From: Escherichia coli | Lineage (GTDB): Bacteria; Pseudomonadota; Gammaproteobacteria; Enterobacterales; Enterobacteriaceae | Assembly (NCBI RefSeq): GCF_003334765.1 | Contig: NZ_QOWT01000016.1 | DNA length: 64,000 bases | Reading direction: 5' to 3' (one strand) | Shown: positions 28,147 through 50,186 of the stretch, in pieces | How the letters are laid out: each line of letters starts with the position of its first letter | Position numbering within the stretch: position 1 is the stretch's first letter | The notes under the pieces: model-generated | Seen by the model: the letters and a program-made list of their open reading frames with translations, nothing else | Told to the model about the DNA's origin: nothing | Database searches by the model: none | Position numbers and translations under genes: made by a program

Positions 28147-30390
28147 TTAGAAACGGAAGGTTGCGGTTGCAACGACCTGACGTTCTGCGCCCCAGAAGCA
28201 GCCATAAGTGTTAAAGCAGCTGGCGACGTATTCACGATCGAACAGGTTGTTAACATGCAGCGCCACGTTGGAGCCAGCCATGCCGACTCGCGCCAGATCA
28301 TAACGTACTAACGCATCCACGACCGTATAACTTCCCACTTTAAAGGAGTTAGCCGGATCACCATAACTGGAGCCAGTATAACGACCACCGGTGCCCAGCG
28401 TCAGACCTGAAAGCGGACCGTCAAAGAAGGTGTAGTCAGCCCACAACGAAGCCATGTGTTTTGGCACCTGTGCAGGCGTATTGCCTTTATAGGTAGTATC
28501 GGTGGTGTATTCCGCATCGGTGTAAGTATAAGAACCGACTACGTTAACACTCGCCGACAGCGCCGCTTTCGCTTCGATTTCTACGCCACGTGCGCGGATC
28601 TCGCCACCTTCAACCGAGAAGAAGGAACCCTCAGGGTCCGCCATCAGGTTGTTGGTTTTAGTGAGATTATACACGGCACCAGTAACTACAATCGGACGAT
28701 CTTCCGGTACATATTTCACGCCGACTTCATACTGCTTACCTTTAGACGGTGCGAAAATATTACCATCCTTCCCAACTTGCGAAGAAGGTTCAAACGATTC
28801 GCTATAGCTGAAGTAAGGTGTTACACCATTATCAAACAGGTAGTTAACACCACCACGCCAGGTAAACTGTTTGTCATCACGTTTATCGGTCGTCCCGGCA
28901 ACGCGGTTAAGAGATTCTTGATCTGCCCAGTCATAACGACCGCCTAGGGTGACCAGCACTTTATCCCACTGCGCCTGATCCTGAACATAAACGCCCGTTT
29001 GTTTCTGTTTATTCAGAATGCGGTAAGGGCCGGAGTTTGCCGGATCTTTGGCATTGAAGTCGAAATCGGTATTCACCGGATTGTACAGATTGAGCAGTGG
29101 CACAGAGTCGTCGTAACCAAACCAGGCGTTGATGTCATTACGCATACGCATAAAGTCGACACCGGTCAGCAGGGTGTGGTCGATATCGCCAGTGGCAAAC
29201 TTGCTCTGCAACTGGGTATCAACGGAGAAGTTTTGCAGCTTCTCATCATCAACGACGTATTTACGTGCCAGATAATGGCCTTTATCCGCTGGCGCTAATG
29301 CCGCACACTGTTTGCTGTAAGCATTCGCCGGATCGGAGCAGACGCCGTAACCATAAACGCTGTTTTGCGAGGTTTTGTTTTCAGCAAAGCGCAGGTTCTG
29401 ACGCACAGTAAAGGTGTCGTTAAATTCGTGATCGAAGCTGTAGCCGACCATCTTCTCATTACGAGAATAGGTGTTGTTCTTCGCCCCTTCATTAAAGTCT
29501 GTCGGCAGACGCTTACCGTTCGGCAGCGGCTCAACGGTTCCCTCTTTCGGCAACCAGCCGTAATAACCGGTTTCCGGCTCGTTCTGGAAGTAAGAAAGGA
29601 AGGTAAAATTGGTTTTATCATCCGGACGCCAGGTGAACGCCGGTGCAATAGCATAACGCTGCTCTTCTGACCCTTTCTGCTGGGCATTGGCAGAACGCGC
29701 AAGACCGGTCAGGCGATAAGAGTAAACACCGTCATCATCCAACGAATCGCTAAAGTCAAAACCAGTCTGGAACAGGCTGTCAGTACCGGCTTTAAACTGA
29801 ACTTCTTTCAGCGGTTCGGTGGTCGGACGCTTGCTGACCATATTCAACAGGCCGCCAGGACTGCTTTTACCGTAAAGCACGGAAACCGGGCCACGCATAA
29901 TTTCAGCGCGTTCCAGCATATACGGGTCAATGACCGCATCGTTATAGAAGTTGCCCTGCAACTTCAGGCCATTCAGATAGTTATTCTGGCTTTGGCCTTC
30001 TGCCGCAAAGCCGCGAATGATCAGGTGGTCATAGGTGTTGGATGCGCCACGCGTACCAACAGAGACACCCGGCGTGTAGCTAAGCGCTTCTTTTACCGAC
30101 TTCGGCTGATGCAGCGCCATCTCTTCGGCGGTCACAACAGAAATAGACTGTGGCACTTTTTGAATCGGCGTATCGGTTTTAGTGCCGGTAGCAGACTGTC
30201 GCGCCGCAATAGTTGCAGCAGGCCCCCATGCGCTTTCTTGCGGCGCAGGTGCAGCGGTAACGGTGATAGTGTCTTCTTTCGGTTCAACCGCTGCCTGTGC
30301 ATAAACAGACATGCCGCTAACCGCTGTGGCTACTACAACTGCGATTTTACGCAGTGAGTGTTTTGGCTGAGCAGTTTTGGAACGCGCCAT
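28147..30390 (-). CDS. fhuA: TonB-dependent outer-membrane ferrichrome receptor
   Basis: 747-aa ORF with signal peptide, N-terminal TonB-box-like DTITV, C-terminal aromatic residue. Confidence 0.95.
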   Translation of the reverse strand: MARSKTAQPKHSLRKIAVVVATAVSGMSVYAQAAVEPKEDTITVTAAPAPQESAWGPAATIAARQSATGTKTDTPIQKVPQSISVVTAEEMALHQPKSVKEALSYTPGVSVGTRGASNTYDHLIIRGFAAEGQSQNNYLNGLKLQGNFYNDAVIDPYMLERAEIMRGPVSVLYGKSSPGGLLNMVSKRPTTEPLKEVQFKAGTDSLFQTGFDFSDSLDDDGVYSYRLTGLARSANAQQKGSEEQRYAIAPAFTWRPDDKTNFTFLSYFQNEPETGYYGWLPKEGTVEPLPNGKRLPTDFNEGAKNNTYSRNEKMVGYSFDHEFNDTFTVRQNLRFAENKTSQNSVYGYGVCSDPANAYSKQCAALAPADKGHYLARKYVVDDEKLQNFSVDTQLQSKFATGDIDHTLLTGVDFMRMRNDINAWFGYDDSVPLLNLYNPVNTDFDFNAKDPANSGPYRILNKQKQTGVYVQDQAQWDKVLVTLGGRYDWADQESLNRVAGTTDKRDDKQFTWRGGVNYLFDNGVTPYFSYSESFEPSSQVGKDGNIFAPSKGKQYEVGVKYVPEDRPIVVTGAVYNLTKTNNLMADPEGSFFSVEGGEIRARGVEIEAKAALSASVNVVGSYTYTDAEYTTDTTYKGNTPAQVPKHMASLWADYTFFDGPLSGLTLGTGGRYTGSSYGDPANSFKVGSYTVVDALVRYDLARVGMAGSNVALHVNNLFDREYVASCFNTYGCFWGAERQVVATATFRF

Positions 30391-38747: not shown

Positions 38748-40145
38748 ATTTTTACCCGAGTCGCTAATTTTTGCCGCAAGGTGCTAAGCCGCGAGGAAAG
38801 CGAGGCTGAACAGGCAGTCGCCCGTCCACAGGTGACGGTGATCCCGCGTGAGCAGCATGCTATTTCCCGCAAAGATATCAGTGAAAATGCCCTGAAGGTA
38901 ATGTACAGGCTCAATAAAGCGGGATACGAAGCCTGGCTGGTTGGCGGCGGCGTGCGCGACCTGTTACTTGGCAAAAAGCCGAAAGATTTTGACGTAACCA
39001 CTAACGCCACGCCTGAGCAGGTGCGCAAACTGTTCCGTAACTGCCGCCTGGTGGGTCGCCGTTTCCGTCTGGCTCATGTAATGTTTGGCCCGGAGATTAT
39101 CGAAGTTGCGACCTTCCGTGGACACCACGAAGGTAACGTCAGCGACCGCACGACCTCCCAACGCGGGCAAAACGGCATGTTGCTGCGCGACAACATTTTC
39201 GGCTCCATCGAAGAAGACGCCCAGCGCCGCGATTTCACTATCAACAGCCTGTATTACAGCGTAGCGGATTTTACCGTCCGTGATTACGTTGGCGGCATGA
39301 AGGATCTGAAGGACGGCGTTATCCGTCTGATTGGTAACCCGGAAACGCGCTACCGTGAAGATCCGGTACGTATGCTGCGCGCGGTACGTTTTGCCGCCAA
39401 ATTGGGTATGCGCATCAGCCCGGAAACCGCAGAACCGATCCCTCGCCTCGCTACCCTGCTGAACGATATCCCACCGGCACGCCTGTTTGAAGAATCGCTT
39501 AAACTGCTACAAGCGGGCTACGGTTACGAAACCTATAAGCTGTTGTGTGAATATCATCTGTTCCAGCCGCTGTTCCCGACCATTACCCGCTACTTCACGG
39601 AAAATGGCGACAGCCCGATGGAGCGGATCATTGAACAGGTGCTGAAGAATACCGATACGCGTATCCATAACGATATGCGCGTGAACCCGGCGTTCCTGTT
39701 TGCCGCCATGTTCTGGTACCCACTGCTGGAGACGGCACAGAAGATCGCCCAGGAAAGCGGCCTGACCTATCACGACGCTTTCGCGCTGGCGATGAACGAC
39801 GTGCTGGACGAAGCCTGCCGTTCACTGGCAATCCCGAAACGTCTGACGACATTAACCCGCGATATCTGGCAGTTGCAGTTGCGTATGTCCCGTCGTCAGG
39901 GTAAACGCGCATGGAAACTGCTGGAGCATCCTAAGTTCCGTGCGGCTTATGACCTGTTGGCCTTGCGAGCTGAAGTTGAGCGTAACGCTGAACTGCAGCG
40001 TCTGGTGAAATGGTGGGGTGAGTTCCAGGTTTCCGCGCCACCAGACCAAAAAGGGATGCTCAACGAGCTGGATGAAGAACCGTCACCGCGTCGTCGTACT
40101 CGTCGTCCACGCAAACGCGCACCACGTCGTGAGGGTACCGCATGA
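38748..40145 (+). CDS. pcnB: Poly(A) polymerase I
   Basis: Reading frame open from 38727 (TTG); the established initiator is the non-canonical AUU, here ATT at 38748-38750 with gagg 8 nt upstream; nucleotidyltransferase motif [10 protein letters not shown]; stop overlaps folK start. Confidence 0.85.
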
Positions 40146-40621
40146 CAGTGGCGTATATTGCCATAGGCAGCAATCTGGCCTCTCCGCTGGAGCAGGTCAA
40201 TGCTGCCCTGAAAGCATTAGGCGATATCCCTGAAAGCCACATTCTTACCGTTTCTTCGTTTTACCGCACCCCACCGCTGGGGCCGCAAGATCAACCCGAT
40301 TACTTAAACGCAGCCGTGGCGCTGGAAACCTCTCTTGCACCTGAAGAGCTACTCAATCACACACAGCGTATTGAATTGCAGCAAGGTCGCGTCCGCAAAG
40401 CTGAACGCTGGGGACCACGCACGCTGGATCTCGACATCATGCTGTTTGGTAATGAAGTGATAAATACTGAACGCCTGACCGTTCCGCACTACGATATGAA
40501 GAATCGTGGATTTATGCTGTGGCCGCTGTTTGAAATCGCGCCGGAGTTGGTGTTTCCTGATGGGGAGATGTTGCGTCAAATCTTACATACAAGAGCATTT
40601 GACAAATTAAACAAATGGTAA
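40142..40621 (+). CDS. folK: 6-hydroxymethyl-7,8-dihydropterin pyrophosphokinase
   Basis: 159-aa ORF; ATGA overlap with pcnB stop. Confidence 0.93.
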
Positions 40622-40990
40622 TTTATTTATATTGCGAATATAAATATTTTCTGAAAATCATATCTCATCTCTTTCCTTAATTACGATTTTAGTTTAAACA
40701 TCTCTTTGCGGAAATAATATAACTTCCTATAAATAAATATCAATCCCATCTCCATACCCTAACCAATTGCACTTGTGAACTTATTTTTACTTAATTTTGA
40801 ATTAAGTAAATTTAATTTGTTCAAAAGCTTCTAAAGTGCACAATAGGCGACCTAATGAACAATGGTTGTAAATTTGGGTAACAAATATCATTGCTCATTA
40901 ATATCTAACATTTGTTTCTCCTATTTGTGTCATGAATAGTCATTCTTCAAACATGTAGTCTGACTAATGGAATTTTATTAAAGGATTTTT
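40622..40990 (+). promoter_or_regulatory. AT-rich upstream region of the yad fimbrial operon
   Basis: 369-bp strongly AT-rich spacer with many A/T tracts immediately upstream of yadN; typical of nucleoid-protein-silenced fimbrial promoters. Confidence 0.6.
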
Positions 40991-41575
40991 ATGTCTAAAA
41001 AATTAGGTTTTGCCCTGTCTGGTCTTATGCTGGCGATGGTTGCAGGTACTGCTTCTGCTGATATGGACGGCGGTCAGTTAAATATCAGTGGTCTGGTTGT
41101 TGATAACACCTGTGAAACCCGCGTTGACGGCGGTAACAAGGATGGTCTGATCCTGCTGCAAACCGCAACCGTTGGTGAAATCGATGCTGGCGTACTGAAT
41201 GACACCGTTGGCGCTAAAGCTAAACCTTTCAGCATCACCGTTGACTGCAGCAAAGCAAATCCGAATCCAGGTAGCACGGCTAAAATGACCTTCGGTTCTG
41301 TTTTCTTTGGTAACAGCAAAGGGACTTTGAACAACGACATGTCTATTAACAACCCATCTGACGGCGTTAATATCGCTCTACACAATATTGATGGTTCCAC
41401 TATCAAACAGGTTCAAATTAACAACCCTGGCGATGTGTATACTAAAGCCCTGGATGCAACGACAAAATCTGCTGTTTATGATTTTAAAGCGTCTTACGTT
41501 CGTGCCGTCGCAGACCAAACAGCAACTGCTGGTTATGTAAAAACTAACACTGCATACACCATTACTTATCAGTAA
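40991..41575 (+). CDS. yadN: Fimbrial major-subunit-like protein
   Basis: 194-aa ORF with signal peptide ([23 protein letters not shown]) and fimbrial-subunit features; first gene of chaperone-usher cluster. Confidence 0.85.
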
Positions 41576-41672
41576 GTATTCACCAGTTAAATTGATTGAA
41601 TGAATATACAGGGAATAATAATTTCTATTTTATATTATTCCCTGTTTTAATTAACTCTATCAGGGATGGTTT

Positions 41673-42413
41673 ATGTTTTTTAACACCAAACATACAACAG
41701 CTTTATGCTTCGTAACCTGTATGGCTTTTAGTTCATCGTCTATTGCGGACATTGTCATTTCGGGTACTCGCGTAATATATAAAAGCGATCAAAAAAGTGT
41801 CAACGTACGTCTGGAAAATAAAGGGAATAACCCGTTGCTTGTCCAGAGTTGGTTAGATACTGGCGATGACAACGCTGAGCCTGGCAGTATTACAGTCCCT
41901 TTTACTGCTACGCCGCCAGTATCGCGTATTGATGCCAAACGTGGGCAAACAATCAAATTAATGTACACAGCCAGCACCTCACTGCCTAAAGACAGAGAGA
42001 GCGTGTTCTGGTTTAACGTACTGGAAGTTCCACCAAAACCAGATGCAGAAAAGGTCGCGAATCAAAGCCTGCTGCAACTGGCATTTCGCACACGTATAAA
42101 ACTTTTCTATCGCCCGGATGGATTGAAGGGAAATCCCTCTGAAGCCCCGTTAGCCCTGAAGTGGTTCTGGTCAGGTTCAGAAGGTAAGGCGTCATTACGA
42201 GTGACCAATCCAACCCCTTACTACGTCTCTTTTAGCAGTGGTGATTTAGAAGCTAGCGGTAAACGCTATCCGATTGATGTGAAAATGATTGCACCATTTA
42301 GTGATGAGGTCATGAAAGTCAATGGCCTTAATGGCAAAGCGAATTCTGCAAAAGTGCATTTTTACGCCATTAATGACTTTGGTGGCGCAATTGAAGGTAA
42401 TGCCAGGCTGTAA
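41673..42413 (+). CDS. yadV: Periplasmic pilus chaperone (PapD-like)
   Basis: 246-aa ORF with signal peptide and PapD-family pattern. Confidence 0.88.
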   Translation: MFFNTKHTTALCFVTCMAFSSSSIADIVISGTRVIYKSDQKSVNVRLENKGNNPLLVQSWLDTGDDNAEPGSITVPFTATPPVSRIDAKRGQTIKLMYTASTSLPKDRESVFWFNVLEVPPKPDAEKVANQSLLQLAFRTRIKLFYRPDGLKGNPSEAPLALKWFWSGSEGKASLRVTNPTPYYVSFSSGDLEASGKRYPIDVKMIAPFSDEVMKVNGLNGKANSAKVHFYAINDFGGAIEGNARL

Positions 42414-42447
42414 TCAGGCAAGGATATAATTCCGCAGGAAGCATAGC

Positions 42448-45045
42448 GTGACTATAGAATATACTAAAAATTATCATCATCTGACCCGTATCGCCACGTT
42501 TTGCGCGCTGCTGTATTGCAATACTGCTTTCAGTGCTGAACTCGTTGAATATGACCATACCTTCCTGATGGGGCAGAATGCATCTAATATTGATCTCAGC
42601 CGGTACAGTGAAGGTAACCCCGCTATACCGGGTGTTTACGACGTCAGTGTTTATGTAAACGACCAACCAATCATTAACCAAAGTATTACATTTGTCGCAA
42701 TTGAAGGAAAAAAGAACGCCCAGGCTTGTATCACATTAAAGAATTTATTGCAGTTTCATATTAATTCTCCCGATATAAATAACGAAAAAGCCGTTCTGCT
42801 TGCCAGGGATGAAACGCTCGGCAATTGCCTCAATTTGACGGAAATTATCCCTCAGGCTTCTGTTCGTTATGACGTTAACGATCAACGTCTGGATATAGAC
42901 GTTCCTCAAGCCTGGGTAATGAAAAATTACCAAAACTATGTTGATCCATCGTTATGGGAAAACGGCATTAATGCGGCCATGTTGTCATACAACCTCAACG
43001 GATATCATAGTGAAACCCCTGGTCGAAAAAATGAAAGCATTTATGCTGCATTTAACGGTGGGATGAATTTAGGTGCATGGCGACTGCGTGCCTCGGGCAA
43101 CTACAACTGGATGACCGATTCTGGCAGTAATTATGATTTTAAGAATCGGTATGTTCAGCGTGATATCGCCTCGCTGCGTTCTCAACTCATTCTTGGTGAG
43201 TCTTATACGACGGGCGAAACCTTTGATTCCGTCAGTATCCGAGGCATTCGTTTATACAGTGACAGCCGCATGTTGCCTCCGACTTTAGCCAGCTTTGCGC
43301 CTATCATTCATGGCGTTGCCAATACCAACGCCAAAGTCACTATTACGCAAGGTGGCTATAAGATTTATGAAACGACGGTGCCGCCAGGCGCTTTCGTCAT
43401 TGATGATCTGAGTCCGTCAGGGTACGGCAGCGATCTTATTGTTACCATCGAAGAATCCGATGGCTCAAAGCGGACATTCTCGCAACCTTTCTCATCCGTT
43501 GTTCAAATGTTACGCCCTGGCGTTGGACGTTGGGATATTAGCGGCGGTCAGGTCTTAAAAGATGATATTCAGGATGAGCCTAATTTATTTCAAGCAAGCT
43601 ACTACTACGGCCTGAATAACTATCTGACGGGTTATACCGGTATTCAGATAACCGATAATAACTATACCGCTGGTTTGTTAGGTCTTGGTCTGAATACTTC
43701 AGTTGGTGCATTTTCTTTCGATGTGACTCATTCCAATGTTCGTATCCCGGATGATAAAACATACCAGGGGCAAAGTTATCGTGTTTCCTGGAACAAGTTA
43801 TTCGAAGAAACAAGTACTTCACTGAATATCGCGGCCTATCGCTATTCGACACAGAATTACCTTGGTCTTAATGATGCACTAACTCTAATTGATGAAGTGA
43901 AACATCCCGAACAAGATCTTGAACCGAAATCCATGCGTAATTACTCACGCATGAAAAATCAGGTTACGGTCAGTATTAACCAACCGTTGAAATTTGAGAA
44001 AAAAGATTACGGTTCATTTTATCTTTCCGGAAGTTGGTCCGATTACTGGGCTTCCGGACAAAATCGTAGCAATTACTCTATTGGCTACAGTAACAGTACA
44101 TCCTGGGGCAGCTACAGTGTCAGTGCCCAGCGTTCATGGAATGAAGACGGCGACACTGACGATAGCGTTTATCTTAGTTTCACCATTCCAATTGAAAAAT
44201 TACTTGGCACTGAACAACGTACTTCAGGTTTCCAGAGTATTGATACTCAAATAAGCAGTGACTTTAAGGGTAATAACCAACTCAACGTTAGCAGCAGTGG
44301 CTATAGCGATAACGCTCGCGTCAGTTATAGCGTGAATACTGGCTATACGATGAATAAAGCCAGCAAAGATTTGAGTTATGTTGGGGGTTATGCCAGCTAT
44401 GAGTCACCATGGGGAACGCTGGCAGGTTCAATTTCTGCAAATAGCGATAACAGCCGTCAAGTTTCTCTCAGCACCGACGGTGGTTTTGTATTGCATAGCG
44501 GTGGACTGACTTTCAGTAATGATAGTTTTAGCGACTCCGATACACTGGCGGTAGTTCAGGCTCCAGGTGCTCAAGGAGCGCGAATAAATTATGGCAACAG
44601 TACTATCGATCGATGGGGTTATGGTGTCACCAGCGCTCTTTCTCCTTATCATGAAAACCGTATCGCGCTGGATATCAACGATCTTGAGAACGATGTTGAA
44701 TTAAAAAGTACCAGTGCAGTAGCTGTACCGCGTCAGGGTTCAGTCGTCTTTGCTGATTTTGAAACCGTGCAAGGGCAATCAGCCATTATGAACATCACAC
44801 GAAGTGATGGTAAAAATATTCCATTTGCTGCAGATATTTATGATGAGCAAGGCAATGTCATTGGTAATGTTGGACAGGGTGGACAAGCATTTGTTCGTGG
44901 TATTGAGCAGCAGGGAAATATCAGCATTAAATGGCTCGAACAAAGTAAACCCGTAAGTTGTCTTGCGCATTATCAACAAAGCCCAGAAGCAGAAAAAATA
45001 GCACAATCTATTATTCTGAATGGAATTCGGTGTCAGATTCAGTAA
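42448..45045 (+). CDS. htrE: Outer-membrane fimbrial usher
   Basis: 865-aa ORF; large beta-barrel usher with C-terminal Cys pair. Confidence 0.9.
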   Translation: MTIEYTKNYHHLTRIATFCALLYCNTAFSAELVEYDHTFLMGQNASNIDLSRYSEGNPAIPGVYDVSVYVNDQPIINQSITFVAIEGKKNAQACITLKNLLQFHINSPDINNEKAVLLARDETLGNCLNLTEIIPQASVRYDVNDQRLDIDVPQAWVMKNYQNYVDPSLWENGINAAMLSYNLNGYHSETPGRKNESIYAAFNGGMNLGAWRLRASGNYNWMTDSGSNYDFKNRYVQRDIASLRSQLILGESYTTGETFDSVSIRGIRLYSDSRMLPPTLASFAPIIHGVANTNAKVTITQGGYKIYETTVPPGAFVIDDLSPSGYGSDLIVTIEESDGSKRTFSQPFSSVVQMLRPGVGRWDISGGQVLKDDIQDEPNLFQASYYYGLNNYLTGYTGIQITDNNYTAGLLGLGLNTSVGAFSFDVTHSNVRIPDDKTYQGQSYRVSWNKLFEETSTSLNIAAYRYSTQNYLGLNDALTLIDEVKHPEQDLEPKSMRNYSRMKNQVTVSINQPLKFEKKDYGSFYLSGSWSDYWASGQNRSNYSIGYSNSTSWGSYSVSAQRSWNEDGDTDDSVYLSFTIPIEKLLGTEQRTSGFQSIDTQISSDFKGNNQLNVSSSGYSDNARVSYSVNTGYTMNKASKDLSYVGGYASYESPWGTLAGSISANSDNSRQVSLSTDGGFVLHSGGLTFSNDSFSDSDTLAVVQAPGAQGARINYGNSTIDRWGYGVTSALSPYHENRIALDINDLENDVELKSTSAVAVPRQGSVVFADFETVQGQSAIMNITRSDGKNIPFAADIYDEQGNVIGNVGQGGQAFVRGIEQQGNISIKWLEQSKPVSCLAHYQQSPEAEKIAQSIILNGIRCQIQ

Positions 45046-45061
45046 CTACAAGGGACGTCAA

Positions 45062-45631
45062 ATGATAAAAACAACGCCACATAAAATAGTGATACTGATG
45101 GGAATATTATTATCACCCTCAGTATTTGCAACGGATATTAATGTAGAGTTTACAGCCACTGTCAAAGCGACAACCTGTAACATCACACTTACTGGTAATA
45201 ACGTCACGAATGATGGCAATAATAACTACACATTGAGAATCCCTAAGATGGGTCTGGATAAGATCGCGAATAAAACGACAGAATCTCAGGCTGATTTTAA
45301 ACTGGTTGCCAGTGGGTGCAGCAGTGGCATCAGTTGGATTGATACCACTCTGACCGGAAATGCATCATCAAGCTCACCTAAGCTTATTATACCGCAGTCT
45401 GGTGATTCATCTTCGACGACAAGTAATATCGGTATGGGTTTCAAAAAACGGACTACTGATGATGCCACTTTCCTTAAACCTAACAGTGCGGAAAAGATAC
45501 GCTGGAGCACAGACGAGATGCAGCCCGATAAGGGTCTTGAAATGACCGTTGCGCTACGTGAAACAGATGCAGGGCAAGGCGTACCGGGGAATTTTCGTGC
45601 ACTGGCGACGTTTAATTTCATCTATCAATAA
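45062..45631 (+). CDS. yadM: Fimbrial-like minor subunit
   Basis: ORF track starts at 45020, but start placed at ATG 45062 (MIKTTPHKIVILMGILLSPSVFA signal peptide), 189 aa. Confidence 0.8.
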   Translation: MIKTTPHKIVILMGILLSPSVFATDINVEFTATVKATTCNITLTGNNVTNDGNNNYTLRIPKMGLDKIANKTTESQADFKLVASGCSSGISWIDTTLTGNASSSSPKLIIPQSGDSSSTTSNIGMGFKKRTTDDATFLKPNSAEKIRWSTDEMQPDKGLEMTVALRETDAGQGVPGNFRALATFNFIYQ

Positions 45632-45642
45632 GAAGGATAATT

Positions 45643-46248
45643 ATGATGACATTTAAAAATTTACGTTATGGATTATCCAGCAGTGTCGTTTTGGCTGCCT
45701 CATTGTTCAGCGTACTCTCTTATGCGGCAACAGACAGTATTGGACTGACCGTTATTACTACTGTAGAAATGGGTACTTGTACCGCTACATTAGTAAATGA
45801 CTCTGATCAGGACATTTCTGTTGTTGATTTTGGTGATGTATATATTTCTGAAATCAATGCCAAGACCAAAGTAAAAACATTCAAACTCAAATTCAAAGAC
45901 TGTGCGGGTATCCCCAATAAAAAAGCGCAAATAAAATTAACCAAGCGAGCCACATGCGAGGGAACTGCTAATGACGGTGCGGGGTTTGCAAATGGTTCCA
46001 CAGCCGCAGATAAAGCAAGTGCTGTCGCCGTTGAAGTCTGGAGCACTGTAACTCCGGCAACAGGGAGTGCAACACAATTTAGCTGTGTAACACCAGCATC
46101 ACAAGAGGTAACAATCTCCACTGCAGCCAATGCGGTCGTTTATTATCCGATGAGTGCACGCCTGGTCGTGGAAAAAAATAAAACCGTAAACAATGTCACT
46201 GCGGGTAAGTTTTCTGCACCAGCCACATTTACAGTAACCTATAACTAA
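45643..46248 (+). CDS. yadL: Fimbrial-like minor subunit
   Basis: 201-aa ORF with signal peptide and Cys pair. Confidence 0.8.
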   Translation: MMTFKNLRYGLSSSVVLAASLFSVLSYAATDSIGLTVITTVEMGTCTATLVNDSDQDISVVDFGDVYISEINAKTKVKTFKLKFKDCAGIPNKKAQIKLTKRATCEGTANDGAGFANGSTAADKASAVAVEVWSTVTPATGSATQFSCVTPASQEVTISTAANAVVYYPMSARLVVEKNKTVNNVTAGKFSAPATFTVTYN

Positions 46249-46274
46249 CAGACTTACAGATTCAGGAACTATAT

Positions 46275-46871
46275 ATGCATCCCACTCAACGTAAGCTGAT
46301 GAAGAGAATAATTCTGTTTCTGTCATTACTGTTTTGCATCGCCTGTCCAGCCATTGCTGGACAGGATATTGACCTTGTTGCCAATGTAAAAAACAGCACC
46401 TGCAAAAGCGGAATCAGTAACCAGGGTAATATTGATCTTGGCGTCGTTGGGGTGGGATATTTTTCAGGTAATGTTACTCCTGAAAGTTATCAACCAGGTG
46501 GAAAAGAGTTCACTATCACTGTATCCGACTGTGCATTACAGGGAACTGGCGATGTGCTAAATCAGTTACATATTGATTTTAGAGCCCTTAGCGGTGTCAT
46601 GGCTGCTGGCTCTAGGCAAATATTTGCTAATGAAATTTCGTCAGGAGCAAGTAATGTAGGAGTAGTTATATTTTCTACTCAGGATTCGGCGAATACATTC
46701 AATGTTCTTAATGCTTCAGGCGGATCTCGTTCCGTTTATCCAGTAATGTCGGATGACATGAATGGTTCATCCTGGAAATTTAGCACCCGAATGCAAAAAA
46801 TCGATCCTGCATTGAGTGTTACATCTGGTCAACTTATGAGCCATGTGTTAGTGGATATTTACTACGAATAA
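46275..46871 (+). CDS. yadK: Fimbrial-like minor subunit
   Basis: 198-aa ORF with signal peptide. Confidence 0.8.
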   Translation: MHPTQRKLMKRIILFLSLLFCIACPAIAGQDIDLVANVKNSTCKSGISNQGNIDLGVVGVGYFSGNVTPESYQPGGKEFTITVSDCALQGTGDVLNQLHIDFRALSGVMAAGSRQIFANEISSGASNVGVVIFSTQDSANTFNVLNASGGSRSVYPVMSDDMNGSSWKFSTRMQKIDPALSVTSGQLMSHVLVDIYYE

Positions 46872-46920
46872 CAAACAAAAACAGCGCAAACCATAACAAT
46901 AAAGAAACATTGGAGTAAAA

Positions 46921-48159
46921 ATGAAGACTATCTTCAGGTACATTCTTTTTTTAGCACTGTATTCTTGTTGTAATACAGTCAGTGCATATACAAGTTTTAT
47001 TGTGGGAAATAATGCAGGAGTTGATAACTATCGAGGCCCCTCCACTGCCGCACAGATGACCTTTAATTACACATCAACAGCAAGCAACTTGGTTTTTTAT
47101 AAACCCACGCAGCTCGGCCCGACTGGGGTAAAAATGTACTGGTCATACCTGGATACAGGTACCGGTGGTGGTATTCTTTACTGCAATACATCTGGCAGAG
47201 CGAATCCTGGTCCAATAACTATTGAAAATGCCATGGTCTATTCAGGTAAAGATTATGGCGGACATAAACTATTTAATACATCTGTTCCTGGTCTGTATTA
47301 CACCATGTTAATATCAAGGGTCTGGTCTGCATACGATACAATAACTGACATTCAATCGCCAGGAATCTATATCGGAGATCCTTCCAACCAAGAATTTTTC
47401 TTTTCCGTCACAGACAGCGATCTACAAACTAAGGGTTGCAACAAAGCAGACGACTACGATAAGTTTTGGGCTATTGGTGGTATAGTACACAACATAACTG
47501 TTGAATTTTATACAGATACTAATTTCGATCCTACACTTAATCAGCAAGTCCAGTTATCCAGTTCATCAAATTACCTTTATTCGTTTAAGGCCTACAGTCC
47601 TGGTACAAAAGTTGTAGATCACAGCAACCACATTTATGTCAATTTCACACTGAATAATGTCAAATTAACCTTACCAACATGTTTTACCTCCATACTTACC
47701 GGGCCATCAGTCAATGGTTCAACGGTTAGAATGGGAGAATATAGCTCTGGGACAATTAAAAATGGCGCTTCACCTGTTCCCTTTGATATCTCGCTTCAGA
47801 ATTGTATTCGTGTGCGTAATATTGAAACAAAACTCGTCACTGGAAAAGTAGGTACTCAAAACACACAACTGCTTGGTAATACGCTTACTGGAAGCACTGC
47901 CGCCAAAGGCGTTGGCGTACTCATTGAAGGTTTAGCAACCAGTAAAAATCCGCTAATGACATTAAAACCTAATGATACGAATTCTGTTTATATAGATTAT
48001 GAAACCGAAGATGACACCTCCGATGGGGTTTACCCTAATCAAGGTAACGGCACATCACAGCCTCTTCATTTCCAGGCAACATTAAAGCAAGACGGGAATA
48101 TTGCTATCGAACCCGGCGAATTTAAAGCCACCAGTACTTTCCAGGTAACCTATCCCTGA
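46921..48159 (+). CDS. yadC: Fimbrial tip-adhesin-like two-domain subunit
   Basis: 412-aa ORF with signal peptide; size fits an adhesin (lectin domain plus pilin domain); last gene of cluster. Confidence 0.8.
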
Positions 48160-48163
48160 TAAC

Positions 48164-48198
48164 GTAGCAGCACTGTCACCTTCTGGCAGTGCTGCTAC
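48164..48198 (+). terminator. Hairpin terminating the yad operon
   Basis: Perfect 12-bp stem gtagcagcactg/cagtgctgctac starting 5 bp after yadC stop; weak U-run. Confidence 0.55.
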
Positions 48199-48272
48199 GG
48201 ATAAATCATTGCCCCCACCAATGTGACTGATAAAATGCCAGACAGCACAACATCAATTTATCAGGATACGTT

Positions 48273-49067
48273 ATGAAACCGACCACCATCTCCTTACTGC
48301 AGAAGTACAAACAGGAAAAAAAACGTTTCGCGACCATCACCGCTTATGACTATAGCTTCGCCAAACTCTTTGCTGATGAAGGGCTTAACGTCATGCTGGT
48401 GGGCGATTCGCTGGGCATGACGGTTCAGGGGCACGACTCCACCCTGCCAGTTACCGTTGCCGATATCGCCTACCACACTGCCGCCGTACGTCGCGGCGCA
48501 CCAAACTGCCTGCTGCTGGCTGACCTGCCGTTTATGGCGTATGCCACGCCGGAACAAGCCTTCGAAAACGCCGCAACGGTTATGCGTGCCGGTGCTAACA
48601 TGGTCAAAATTGAAGGCGGTGAGTGGCTGGTAGAAACCGTACAAATGCTGACCGAACGTGCCGTTCCTGTATGTGGTCACTTAGGTTTAACACCACAGTC
48701 AGTGAATATTTTCGGTGGCTACAAAGTTCAGGGGCGCGGCGATGAAGCGGGCGATCAACTGCTCAGCGATGCATTAGCCTTAGAAGCTGCTGGGGCACAG
48801 CTGCTGGTGCTGGAATGCGTGCCGGTTGAACTGGCAAAACGTATTACCGAAGCACTGGCGATCCCGGTTATTGGCATTGGCGCAGGCAACGTCACTGACG
48901 GGCAGATCCTCGTGATGCACGACGCCTTTGGTATTACCGGCGGTCACATTCCTAAATTCGCTAAAAATTTCCTCGCCGAAACGGGCGACATCCGCGCGGC
49001 TGTGCGGCAGTATATGGCTGAAGTGGAGTCCGGCGTTTATCCGGGCGAAGAACACAGTTTCCATTAA
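48273..49067 (+). CDS. panB: 3-methyl-2-oxobutanoate hydroxymethyltransferase
   Basis: 264-aa [36 protein letters not shown]... Confidence 0.95.
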
Positions 49068-49078
49068 GGAGTCACGTT

Positions 49079-49930
49079 GTGTTAATTATCGAAACCCTGC
49101 CGCTGCTGCGTCAGCAAATTCGCCGCCTGCGTATGGAAGGCAAGCGCGTGGCGCTGGTGCCTACCATGGGTAACCTGCACGATGGCCATATGAAGCTGGT
49201 CGACGAAGCCAAAGCCCGCGCCGATGTGGTCGTCGTCAGTATTTTCGTTAACCCGATGCAGTTCGACCGCCCGGAAGATCTGGCTCGTTATCCACGGACC
49301 TTGCAGGAGGACTGCGAGAAGCTAAACAAACGTAAAGTGGATTTAGTTTTCGCCCCTTCGGTAAAAGAGATCTACCCGAACGGTACTGAAACCCACACTT
49401 ACGTTGACGTTCCTGGCCTTTCGACCATGCTGGAAGGTGCCAGCCGTCCGGGACATTTTCGCGGCGTTTCGACTATTGTCAGCAAGCTGTTCAACCTGGT
49501 CCAGCCGGACATCGCCTGCTTCGGTGAAAAAGATTTTCAGCAACTGGCGCTGATCCGCAAAATGGTTGCCGATATGGGCTTCGATATTGAGATTGTCGGT
49601 GTGCCAATTATGCGCGCCAAAGACGGTCTGGCGCTAAGTTCCCGTAACGGTTATCTGACGGCGGAACAACGCAAAATTGCGCCTGGTCTGTACAAAGTTT
49701 TAAGTTCGATTGCTGACAAATTGCAGGCTGGGGAACGGGATCTCGATGAAATTATTACCATTGCGGGGCAAGAACTGAATGAAAAAGGCTTCCGCGCCGA
49801 TGATATTCAGATTCGCGATGCCGACACATTGCTGGAAGTTTCTGAAACCAGCAAACGGGCAGTAATTCTGGTAGCCGCCTGGCTTGGCGATGCTCGCCTG
49901 ATCGACAACAAAATGGTCGAGCTGGCGTAA
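49079..49930 (+). CDS. panC: Pantothenate synthetase
   Basis: 283-aa ORF, GTG start; class I-like motif [10 protein letters not shown]. Confidence 0.95.
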
Positions 49931-50003
49931 TACTTAACTGGCGCTACGGCTGATGGCGCCAGTTATTAATTTACCCCACGTCATCTGTCATAACACAGGT
50001 AAC

Positions 50004-50186
50004 TTAAATAAGGTTAATTACCTTATCAATCTCAGCAAGAGGTAAATTTGCCATCTCTGCAACGTCTTCCCGAGACATTCCTTTACTCAGAAGACGCTGG
50101 GCGAATTCCTGACTTACTTCCTGTCTTCCCTGCTGAATCCCCTTCTCAATCCCTTTCTCTTCAAACCACTGCGCCAGCGTCATCAT
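50004..50186 (-). CDS. Candidate intragenic small protein (60 aa) in the rpnC frame
   Basis: In-frame tandem ATG-ATG (50184-50186, 50181-50183) with Shine-Dalgarno-like GGGAGGGGAG 7 nt upstream (plus-strand ctcccctccc, 50191-50200); product MMTLAQWFEEKGIEK...VINLI. Confidence 0.35.
   Translation of the reverse strand: MMTLAQWFEEKGIEKGIQQGRQEVSQEFAQRLLSKGMSREDVAEMANLPLAEIDKVINLI

Follow-up and report, generated by a model that had tools for sequence, protein, structure and literature searches.

What are seven fimbrial genes doing between folK and panB in Escherichia coli, and should they be regarded as a working adhesin system, as a decaying remnant, or as a recent arrival on the chromosome? 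We address this question in a window of 64,000 nucleotides (the whole stretch of E. coli DNA that was analysed; all positions refer to it), starting from a preliminary description made from the sequence alone. The identity with K-12, the gene and domain content, the base composition, the insertion status and the hairpins were computed here; H-NS silencing, pilus formation and ligands are taken from the literature.

A complete chaperone-usher operon

The locus lies between the end of folK (40621) and the start of panB (48273), and its seven genes are named yadN, yadV (ecpD), htrE, yadM, yadL, yadK and yadC in RefSeq, which also names the two flanks. From 40000 to 48700 (8.7 kb compared) the window matches K-12-type E. 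coli chromosomes at 100% identity, and over 64 kb it differs from one K-12-lineage record by 14 single bases, of which two fall in yadN and yadV. With a probability of roughly 97%, we identify the region as the operon that encodes the Yad chaperone-usher fimbriae of E. coli K-12, i.e., yadN-yadV(ecpD)-htrE-yadM-yadL-yadK-yadC. This operon is already known, and its cryptic state, silencing by H-NS, assembly, ligands and role in virulence are all published.

All seven genes are read from the + strand. The major pilin YadN (40991-41575, 194 aa; Pfam PF00419, E 1e-11; RefSeq yadN) has a signal peptide, a Cys41/Cys86 pair and a C-terminus ending in TYQ, and its gene is followed by that of the PapD-like periplasmic chaperone YadV (41673-42413, 246 aa; NCBIfam NF007398 over the full length, 472 bits vs. 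a cut-off of 285) and that of the outer-membrane usher HtrE (42448-45045, 865 aa, GTG start; NCBIfam NF007337, 1701 bits vs. a cut-off of 830). Next come the minor pilins YadM (45062-45631, 189 aa from the RefSeq start; PF00419, E 1.6e-25), YadL (45643-46248, 201 aa; NCBIfam NF011795 (YadL), 448 bits vs. a cut-off of 392) and YadK (46275-46871, 198 aa; NCBIfam NF011794, 311 bits vs. a cut-off of 132), and lastly the two-domain tip adhesin YadC (46921-48159, 412 aa), which exceeds the cut-off of an NCBIfam adhesin model and matches PF00419 at its C-terminus. YadN and YadM do not reach the cut-offs of the NCBIfam equivalogs nearest to them (StaA and StaD), and their names come from synteny and Pfam alone. 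The longest open reading frame of yadM is open from 45020, upstream of the RefSeq start at 45062. A signal peptide, paired Cys residues and a Tyr in the penultimate position are common to all subunits. With a PapD-like chaperone, an usher in the range of ~800-900 aa, pilin subunits and a two-domain tip adhesin, the locus has the components of a chaperone-usher operon; the preliminary description had proposed just such a complete seven-gene operon with an 865-aa usher between folK and panB, and the reading frames, the NCBIfam and PF00419 matches and the RefSeq annotation bear it out. The HtrE usher is assigned to the gamma-4 clade in PMC7098969, which cites Nuccio & Baumler 2007.

Base composition and silencing

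The island has a GC content of 41.7%, compared to 52.3% in the remainder of the window. Its genes range from 0.40 to 0.45 in GC and from 0.34 to 0.41 in GC3, and the GC3 of all seven is lower than that of any of the window's 49 other genes (0.466 or higher; Mann-Whitney p ~2e-5), while their window-referenced codon adaptation index is also lower (0.58 vs. 0.69; p 2e-4). The folK-yadN spacer (GC 26.6%) is poorer in GC than any of the 30 intergenic regions that lie outside the operon, and the sole spacer lower than it is that between yadN and yadV (97 bp, GC 0.258). A negative GC offset of the island recurs in 13 island-bearing loci (-0.025 to -0.115). Thus, quantitative GC, GC3 and codon-adaptation analyses all agree with the earlier remark that the operon, and above all its upstream spacer, is AT-rich relative to the flanks, and the AT content of the island exceeds the background as clearly as is expected of H-NS-silenced xenogeneic DNA.

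H-NS represses the locus in K-12 and in ExPEC, as demonstrated by reporter, qRT-PCR and western analyses (PMC13245861): deletion of hns in CFT073 raised the Pyad reporter more than 100-fold (PMC13245861), and yadC was up by RT-qPCR in an hns deletion strain (PMC12460168). De-repression in hns mutants and induction of yad by environmental or host cues are both published. The proposal that the operon is silenced under standard conditions is supported by these reports of H-NS repression and by the cryptic but functional pili of K-12/ExPEC, as presented in PMC13245861 (which cites Korea 2010 and Larsonneur 2016) and PMC12460168. In our best explanation, a 7.6-kb AT-rich operon is inserted in an otherwise ~120-bp folK-panB intergenic region, and under laboratory conditions H-NS silences transcription from the 27%-GC region upstream of yadN. 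Sec exports the subunits, the chaperone YadV captures them and the usher HtrE polymerises them into a thin flexible YadN pilus, which also bears YadM, YadL and YadK as minor subunits and YadC as the two-domain adhesin.

The folK-yadN spacer

The spacer spans 40622-40990 on the + strand, i.e., exactly the 369 bp first described, and represents the yad promoter/regulatory region and, according to the literature, the target of H-NS silencing. It coincides with the promoter island 'yadN/folK 156927_379', which has been tied to HGT and to H-NS (PMC3661553). A scan of the + strand of the 369 bp found no consensus sigma-70 promoter, and the promoter could not be placed; over an 8-kb region the sigma-70 scan returned 19 matches vs. 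20.1 expected from shuffles. The high-affinity H-NS 10-mer tCGATAAATT, at up to two mismatches, is absent from the spacer, and the island shows no enrichment for it (0.9 per kb vs. 1.2 per kb), a result that we consider uninformative because H-NS reads AT-rich curvature and not that motif alone.

Alignment revealed a conserved block, GAATATAAATAttTTCtGAAAA, just past the folK stop (40636-40657, + strand), within which GAATATAAATA is invariant in 7 divergent haplotypes; the block may be a regulator or UP-like site. Repeat searches and alignment also located a perfect 10-nt inverted repeat, TTACTTAATT-ttg-AATTAAGTAA (40787-40809, unstranded), whose core CTTAA...TTAAG is maintained across haplotypes (alignment columns 227-250) and which we regard as a candidate transcription-factor site. 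Little here resembles a phase-variable switch, i.e., a site search found no GATC in 40622-40990, there is no recombinase gene, and the inverted repeats are only short and AT-rich. On these grounds we reject a fimS-type inversion or a pap-type Dam/Lrp switch, and Yad has been reported not to be phase-variable (PMC13245861).

An old insertion in a narrow slot

Given that folK and panB are near-adjacent in most Enterobacteriaceae, the Yad operon is an insertion: the gap between the two genes measures only 97-154 bp in ~60 of 80 species of the family, and an operon occupies the slot in only ~13, i.e., the orthologous site mostly lacks one. Homologous operons fill the slot in E. albertii, E. whittamii, Pseudocitrobacter, some Citrobacter and Superficieibacter. 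Nearly all of 5,426 complete E. coli genomes have the slot filled; three haplotype families account for 3915 + 420 + 459 of them, and the remaining genomes include partial or IS-disrupted loci.

Could this be a mobile genomic or pathogenicity island, brought in recently by site-specific integration? The strong shift in GC and GC3, the sharp edges and the fact that most Enterobacteriaceae have no such operon between folK and panB would fit such an origin. However, the attributes of an integrative element (integrase/transposase, tRNA/tmRNA, flanking repeats) are lacking: a tRNA scan found none within 36-53 kb, the interval encodes neither an integrase nor a transposase, its only ORFs being the seven fimbrial ones, and a search for target-site duplications and terminal inverted repeats found no direct or inverted repeat of at least 8 nt linking the two junctions. 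The near-universal occupancy in E. coli and the occupied slots in the other genera and Escherichia species also speak against recent arrival, as does the placement of the locus in the E. coli/Salmonella ancestor by Wurpel et al. (PMC3559732), where it is described as 'core-associated' in E. coli and in the same position as Salmonella Sta. We thus hold a recent island to be very improbable; the missing tRNA, integrase and repeats, together with the core-associated position, imply that acquisition was ancient or proceeded by homologous replacement. Of the earlier view of a horizontally acquired island, the insertion relative to relatives and the distinct composition stand, while the lack of mobile hallmarks makes it an old one. 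Still less credible is a decaying pseudo-operon unable to make pili. It would explain the cryptic behavior reported in the laboratory, the poor codon adaptation and the lesions of other strains (yadC interrupted by IS1, a deletion mediated by IS1, an internal stop in an adhesin), but in the window all seven ORFs are intact, with signal peptides and conserved pilin motifs, forced expression yields visible pili in K-12 and O157 Sakai (as stated in PMC13245861, with reference to Korea 2010 and Larsonneur 2016, and in PMC7098969), and deletion of yad attenuates ExPEC in mice (PMC13245861).

Edges of the island and its hairpins

On the left, the variable AT-rich segment has its edge within the 3' end of folK, in about its last 17-20 codons (40562-40621, + strand), as seen in a break of homology, the FolK tails and the GC content: homology with the O145 haplotype ends at 40581, the C-terminal tail of FolK varies with island haplotype and species (...RAFDKLNKW in K-12), and GC drops from 0.55 along this stretch. 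Outside the right edge, 48200-48272 (+ strand) is the ancestral panB upstream region, recognized by alignment with operon-less species, i.e., with the folK-panB spacers of Salmonella, Citrobacter and Klebsiella, and it contains a promoter-like TTGCCC-16-TAAAAT at 48209-48236.

Abutting this ancestral panB promoter is a GC-rich hairpin with a 5-nt loop (48163-48199, + strand), which marks the right edge of the island. The preliminary description had the operon end in a hairpin with a 12-bp stem; the hairpin is there, but its stem counts 13 perfect Watson-Crick pairs (16 with an extension that includes one G-U), and it is not a canonical terminator. None of 200 shuffles folds equally well (dG -30.4 kcal/mol, z -7.2), every haplotype compared has its own hairpin at this edge, and across 6 haplotypes double (compensatory) changes occur at 7 of the 16 pairs, with 83% of cells paired and a score matched by none of 500 shuffles. 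A classical Rho-independent terminator closing the yad transcript would agree with so stable a stem, with its start 4 nt past the yadC stop, with the pairing kept by compensatory changes and with the E. whittamii version, where TTTT follows directly. Against it, the stem of K-12 and other E. coli haplotypes has no U-tract (GGAUAAAUC...), i.e., in the window the next bases are GGAUAAAUCAUU and no T-tract follows, the terminator scan does not report the hairpin, and a 3' exonuclease barrier, a Rho-assisted site or an insulator of the panB promoter would serve equally well. A classical terminator is therefore a doubtful, if tenable, assignment, and we consider that the hairpin is probably a 3'-end, stability or insulating stem-loop.

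Folding also showed an AT-rich hairpin between yadN and yadV (41608-41653, + strand; dG of the region -25.2 kcal/mol, z -2.9), with a 13-bp stem followed by UUUUAAUU. It probably serves as a partial terminator or as an mRNA-stability element that sets the ratio of pilin to assembly machinery. The single match in an Rfam scan of 40000-49000 (E up to 1) was a chance miRNA on this hairpin (E 0.4).

The YadC adhesin

YadC consists of an N-terminal receptor-binding domain (~residues 23-262) and, at the C-terminus, a pilin domain (265-411). Because a PDB sequence search with YadC gave no relatives, i.e., no solved structure of a sequence relative, we turned to structure prediction and fold search. 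The predicted N-terminal model (pLDDT 89) resembles the receptor-binding domains of chaperone-usher adhesins in the fold search, and as modelled, the lectin domain is similar to UclD and Abp1D. Sequence identity to the YadC domain is only 7-14% for the F17-like (UclD, UcaD, GafD), Abp1D/Abp2D, AtfE, LpfD and MrkD domains, and the YadC domain is larger (~240 aa vs. 165-195), and a ligand pocket cannot be transferred to it from UclD/Abp1D-like structures. We agree with the preliminary description that receptor specificity is unreadable from the sequence; the ligands reported from experiments are D-xylose and annexin A2 (PMC6921372, PMC13245861).

Divergent haplotypes in the same slot

At least three deeply divergent operon haplotypes of E. 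coli sit in the folK-panB slot. The O157:H7/O145 type (ECs0139-0145) and the six-gene L005 type share slot, orientation and gene classes with K-12, and each likewise closes with a hairpin ahead of the panB promoter; one of the two lacks a minor subunit. Their ushers are 62% (O145 type) and 75% (L005 type) identical to that of K-12, and YadC is 48% identical in the L005 type and has no tblastn match in the slot of the O145 type. Counted as gamma-4 haplotypes, at least three or four divergent ones occur in E. coli (usher 62-75% to K-12, YadC lectin domain 24-100%). Their boundaries are the last ~17 folK codons and the covarying hairpin that adjoins the ancestral panB promoter, and panBC divergence is raised beside the slot.

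We postulate, and give it an even chance, that the folK-panB slot is a multi-allelic 'adhesin cassette' site and not one conserved operon, in which long-lived haplotypes under diversifying/balancing selection are swapped at fixed boundaries by flanking homologous recombination, both across genera and within E. coli, with the hairpin serving to insulate the essential promoter of panB from the silenced island. A survey requiring 80% HtrE identity scored such divergent strains (phylogroup E and most of D) as Yad-negative (PMC13245861); if the slot is indeed such a site, these phylogroups carry a divergent homologue in it. Identity-threshold prevalence surveys miscount divergent alleles at the slot, and engineering or deletion of the locus must leave the 3' end of folK and the promoter of panB untouched. 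The Yad locus is a textbook-annotated K-12 locus and carries little weight as a scan finding, though a silenced AT-rich adhesin operon was correctly called from the sequence alone; the additions made here are minor, i.e., at least three haplotypes, the slot boundaries and the modelled fold likeness of YadC.

Comparison with known fimbrial systems

The Yad fimbriae of K-12 MG1655 (yadN-ecpD/yadV-htrE-yadMLKC; Korea et al. 2010, Larsonneur et al. 2016, Ellison et al. 2026) have the same locus, genes, order and flanks as the operon in the window. Salmonella Sta (staA-G) is reported at the identical chromosomal position (PMC3559732) and provides the nearest named NCBIfam relatives of YadN, YadM and YadL (StaA, StaD and StaE, respectively), but scores far under the Sta equivalog cut-offs point to deep sequence divergence. 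In the two Salmonella subspecies compared (arizonae and diarizonae), folK and panB are adjacent and the operon is absent. Unlike the type 1 (fim) and P (pap) operons, Yad has no invertible fimS-like element and no recombinase, its promoter region is without GATC/Lrp sites, and the operon has no dedicated regulator gene; what it has in common with both is chaperone-usher assembly, a hairpin after the major-subunit gene and sensitivity to H-NS.

Gene content and composition of the yad locus

A nucleotide search with positions 40000-48700 recovered several K-12-type E. coli chromosomes that are 100% identical over 8.7 kb, and part or more of this stretch was matched in 5,425 of 5,426 complete E. 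coli genomes. Over its full 64 kb, the window departs from a K-12-lineage record (O16:H48) at 14 positions. One of these, position 30076, falls within fhuA (28147-30390), which is intact in the window and annotated as a pseudogene (internal stop) in the near-identical K-12-lineage record NZ_CP043189. In the RefSeq annotation, pcnB, folK, yadN, yadV, htrE, yadM, yadL, yadK, yadC, panB and panC all lie on the + strand of the window. The gene coordinates and sizes of the preliminary description agree with the ORF table except for yadM, which RefSeq starts at 45062 (189 aa) and whose longest ORF opens at 45020.

The chaperone, the usher, YadL, YadK and the adhesin exceed the curated NCBIfam equivalog cut-offs. 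YadN and YadM remain below those of the closest models, Salmonella StaA for YadN and StaD for YadM, but both proteins are matched by Pfam PF00419. All subunits possess a signal peptide, the usual two cysteines, spaced by ca. 45 residues, and a tyrosine in the penultimate position of the C-terminal strand. In YadC, PF00419 is limited to residues 265-411; no solved structures related to YadC by sequence were found, and residues 23-262 were modelled confidently with AlphaFold2 from 22 diverse alleles (pLDDT 89, pTM 0.86). Therefore, based on the family matches, subunit features and YadC domain data, the operon is complete, as had been proposed from the sequence, and has a two-domain tip adhesin. 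Pilus assembly by the chaperone-usher pathway is well established, and Yad pili would be assembled in this manner, judging from the families of their components.

The locus is compositionally distinct, as the preliminary description had it: GC content is 41.7% in the island (40622-48198) vs 52.3% in the rest of the window, a large and sharp shift. The seven yad genes have a GC of 0.40-0.45 and a GC3 of 0.34-0.41 (declining along the operon from 0.41 in yadN to 0.35 in yadC), against a minimum of 0.466 in the remaining 49 genes of the window (Mann-Whitney p about 2e-5), and the codon-adaptation index, referenced to these other genes, is 0.58 for yad vs 0.69 (p 2e-4). The folK-yadN spacer (369 bp, 26.6% GC) and the yadN-yadV spacer (97 bp, 25.8% GC, the sole spacer with a lower value) are both poorer in GC than any of the 30 intergenic regions that lie outside the operon.

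A derived insertion and its boundaries

A FolK scan, using one genome per species, provided 80 loci. In about 60 of these the folK-panB gap is just 97-154 bp, e.g., in Salmonella arizonae, diarizonae, most Citrobacter, Klebsiella, Enterobacter, Kluyvera, Leclercia, Lelliottia and Kosakonia. A 7-9 kb Yad-like operon occupies the slot in Escherichia coli, E. whittamii, E. albertii, three Pseudocitrobacter, Superficieibacter, Citrobacter werkmanii, C. portucalensis and two further Citrobacter. Flanks on both sides were available for 13 island-bearing loci, and every one of these inserts is richer in AT than its surroundings (offset 0.025-0.115). The short gap in most species and the AT-rich insert mark the Yad operon as a derived insertion. 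One contig retrieved with these loci (L007, NZ_JAHZMP010000106.1, 524 bp, low coverage), labelled as the Firmicute Terrisporobacter mayombei, encodes a FolK 97% identical to that of E. coli and almost certainly represents E. coli contamination of that assembly.

The preliminary description went further and regarded the locus as a horizontally acquired island. The derived, AT-rich insert agrees with this, but the marks of a mobile island are absent: the tRNA scan found none at the locus, the island contains no integrase and no repeats of at least 8 nt joining the two junctions were found. Wurpel et al. (PMC3559732) classed Yad as "core-associated": nearly all E. coli have it at this one site, with an intact operon in 94% of the strains surveyed. 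From this locus conservation and its equivalence with Salmonella Sta at an identical position, they inferred its presence in the common ancestor.

At the left edge, inter-haplotype homology breaks off within folK. The last ca. 17 residues of FolK (window 40562-40621, compared with L004, L005, L008, L009, L011 and other folK-panB loci) vary with the downstream fimbrial haplotype, W always being the final residue, and the K-12 tail (...RAFDKLNKW) uses AT-rich codons; the C-terminus of this essential gene thus seems to travel with the island.

The right edge was mapped by cross-species alignment of the 160 bp upstream of panB. In K-12 the last ca. 75 bp (from about 48200), which hold a promoter-like TTGCCC-16-TAAAAT, are conserved with operon-less species and represent the ancestral panB upstream region. 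Exactly at this junction lies the terminal hairpin (48163-48199, -30.4 kcal/mol, z -7.2), real as described but with 13 perfect pairs, extending to 16, instead of a 12-bp stem; it is missing from the terminator scan because no U-tract follows the stem. A GC-rich hairpin is present directly past the adhesin stop codon in each haplotype examined, and the stem sequences all differ. When six E. coli haplotypes are aligned, 7 of 16 pairs show double-sided changes and 83% of cells are paired; the covariation score is reached by none of 500 shuffles and falls sharply in slid controls. With six sequences, this is support for a selected structure and not proof.

A second class of island-bearing loci (L009, L012, L019, L030, L043, L048, L053 and L058, from E. 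whittamii, Pseudocitrobacter, several Citrobacter and Superficieibacter) has a wholly different panB upstream region over about 110 bp (…AAAGGGCTAAC…CCCCTACAATGCG…), the replaced segment reaching the panB start codon.

Haplotype diversity and decay

In E. coli the slot holds one of three operon families that have diverged deeply from each other: the K-12 family (3,915 genomes with at least 80% query coverage, 80-100% nucleotide identity), the O145/O157:H7 family (420 genomes, usher protein 62% identical to K-12) and a six-gene family (459 genomes, usher 75% identical). Partial matches in about 200 further genomes suggest a fourth operon type. Among YadC alleles, identity drops from 100% to as low as 24% in the lectin domain and 47% in the pilin domain. 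In a 2026 survey with an identity threshold of 80% against a single HtrE, phylogroup E and the majority of D came out as Yad-negative (PMC13245861), yet the operon that O157 Sakai carries at this site (ECs0139-0145) is referred to as Yad and makes filaments (PMC7098969).

Compared with L004 and with L005, which carries the six-gene haplotype, panB-panC (48273-49930) is about 94-96% identical between yad haplotypes, and pcnB and the genes upstream about 97-99%; divergence linked to this hypervariable slot seems to reach into the right flank. The panC-rpnC junction (window 49931-50260; L004 20827-21006; L005 19349-19564) is a second variable spot, with an aligned identity of just 42-46%; at this panC-rpnC (yadD) junction an additional RpnC/YadD fragment or a truncated hypothetical gene is present in other strains, and rpnC, on the opposite strand, splits panBC from panD.

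Among other E. coli genomes (H1, H6, H15, L006 and L087) we found IS1 insertions in yadC, including one in a K-12-identical strain, a single IS1-mediated deletion that leaves a 3' adhesin fragment alone, and an adhesin pseudogene with an internal stop in strain 94_0962, all of which point to recurrent decay of the yad locus.

Regulation, function and relation to known work

The folK-yadN spacer contains no GATC, and no invertible-element architecture was found in it, in agreement with the report that Yad is not phase-variable (PMC13245861). Aligning seven yad haplotypes revealed conserved blocks amid otherwise divergent upstream sequence, i.e., GAATATAAATA..TTC.GAAAA (40636-40657, with GAATATAAATA invariant), a perfect 10-nt inverted repeat TTACTTAATT-ttg-AATTAAGTAA (40787-40809), GTGCACAATAG, TCATTAA and the ribosome-binding region; the 40636-40657 block and the palindrome are candidate operator sites. 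The + strand of this spacer yielded no consensus sigma-70 promoter; Panyukov and Ozoline (PMC3661553) list the spacer as a "promoter island", tied to horizontal transfer and H-NS. Between yadN and yadV, an AT-rich hairpin whose 13-bp stem is perfectly paired precedes UUUUAAUU (41608-41653). Judged by analogy to fimbrial operons elsewhere, it is probably an attenuator or stability element, lowering transcription or mRNA stability past the major subunit gene; its Rfam miRNA match (E 0.4) is spurious.

For silencing and function we rely on published work. In ExPEC, hns deletion raises a Pyad reporter more than 100-fold, serum induces the operon and yad deletion attenuates bloodstream infection; for K-12, effects of temperature, anaerobiosis and ArcA are reported (PMC13245861). 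The yadC gene is also among the silenced horizontally transferred genes de-repressed in an hns deletion strain (PMC12460168), and the proposed silencing is thus borne out. YadC binds annexin A2, and D-xylose blocks adhesion (PMC6921372). Given this silencing, expression and ligand work, the experiments proposed in the preliminary description have largely been done already; its observation was accurate and its interpretation is supported. The Yad locus is already known and well characterised, and the present analysis adds little to it: a mapping of the island's boundaries, a covarying hairpin at the right junction, counts of the operon haplotypes and structural neighbours for the lectin domain of YadC.
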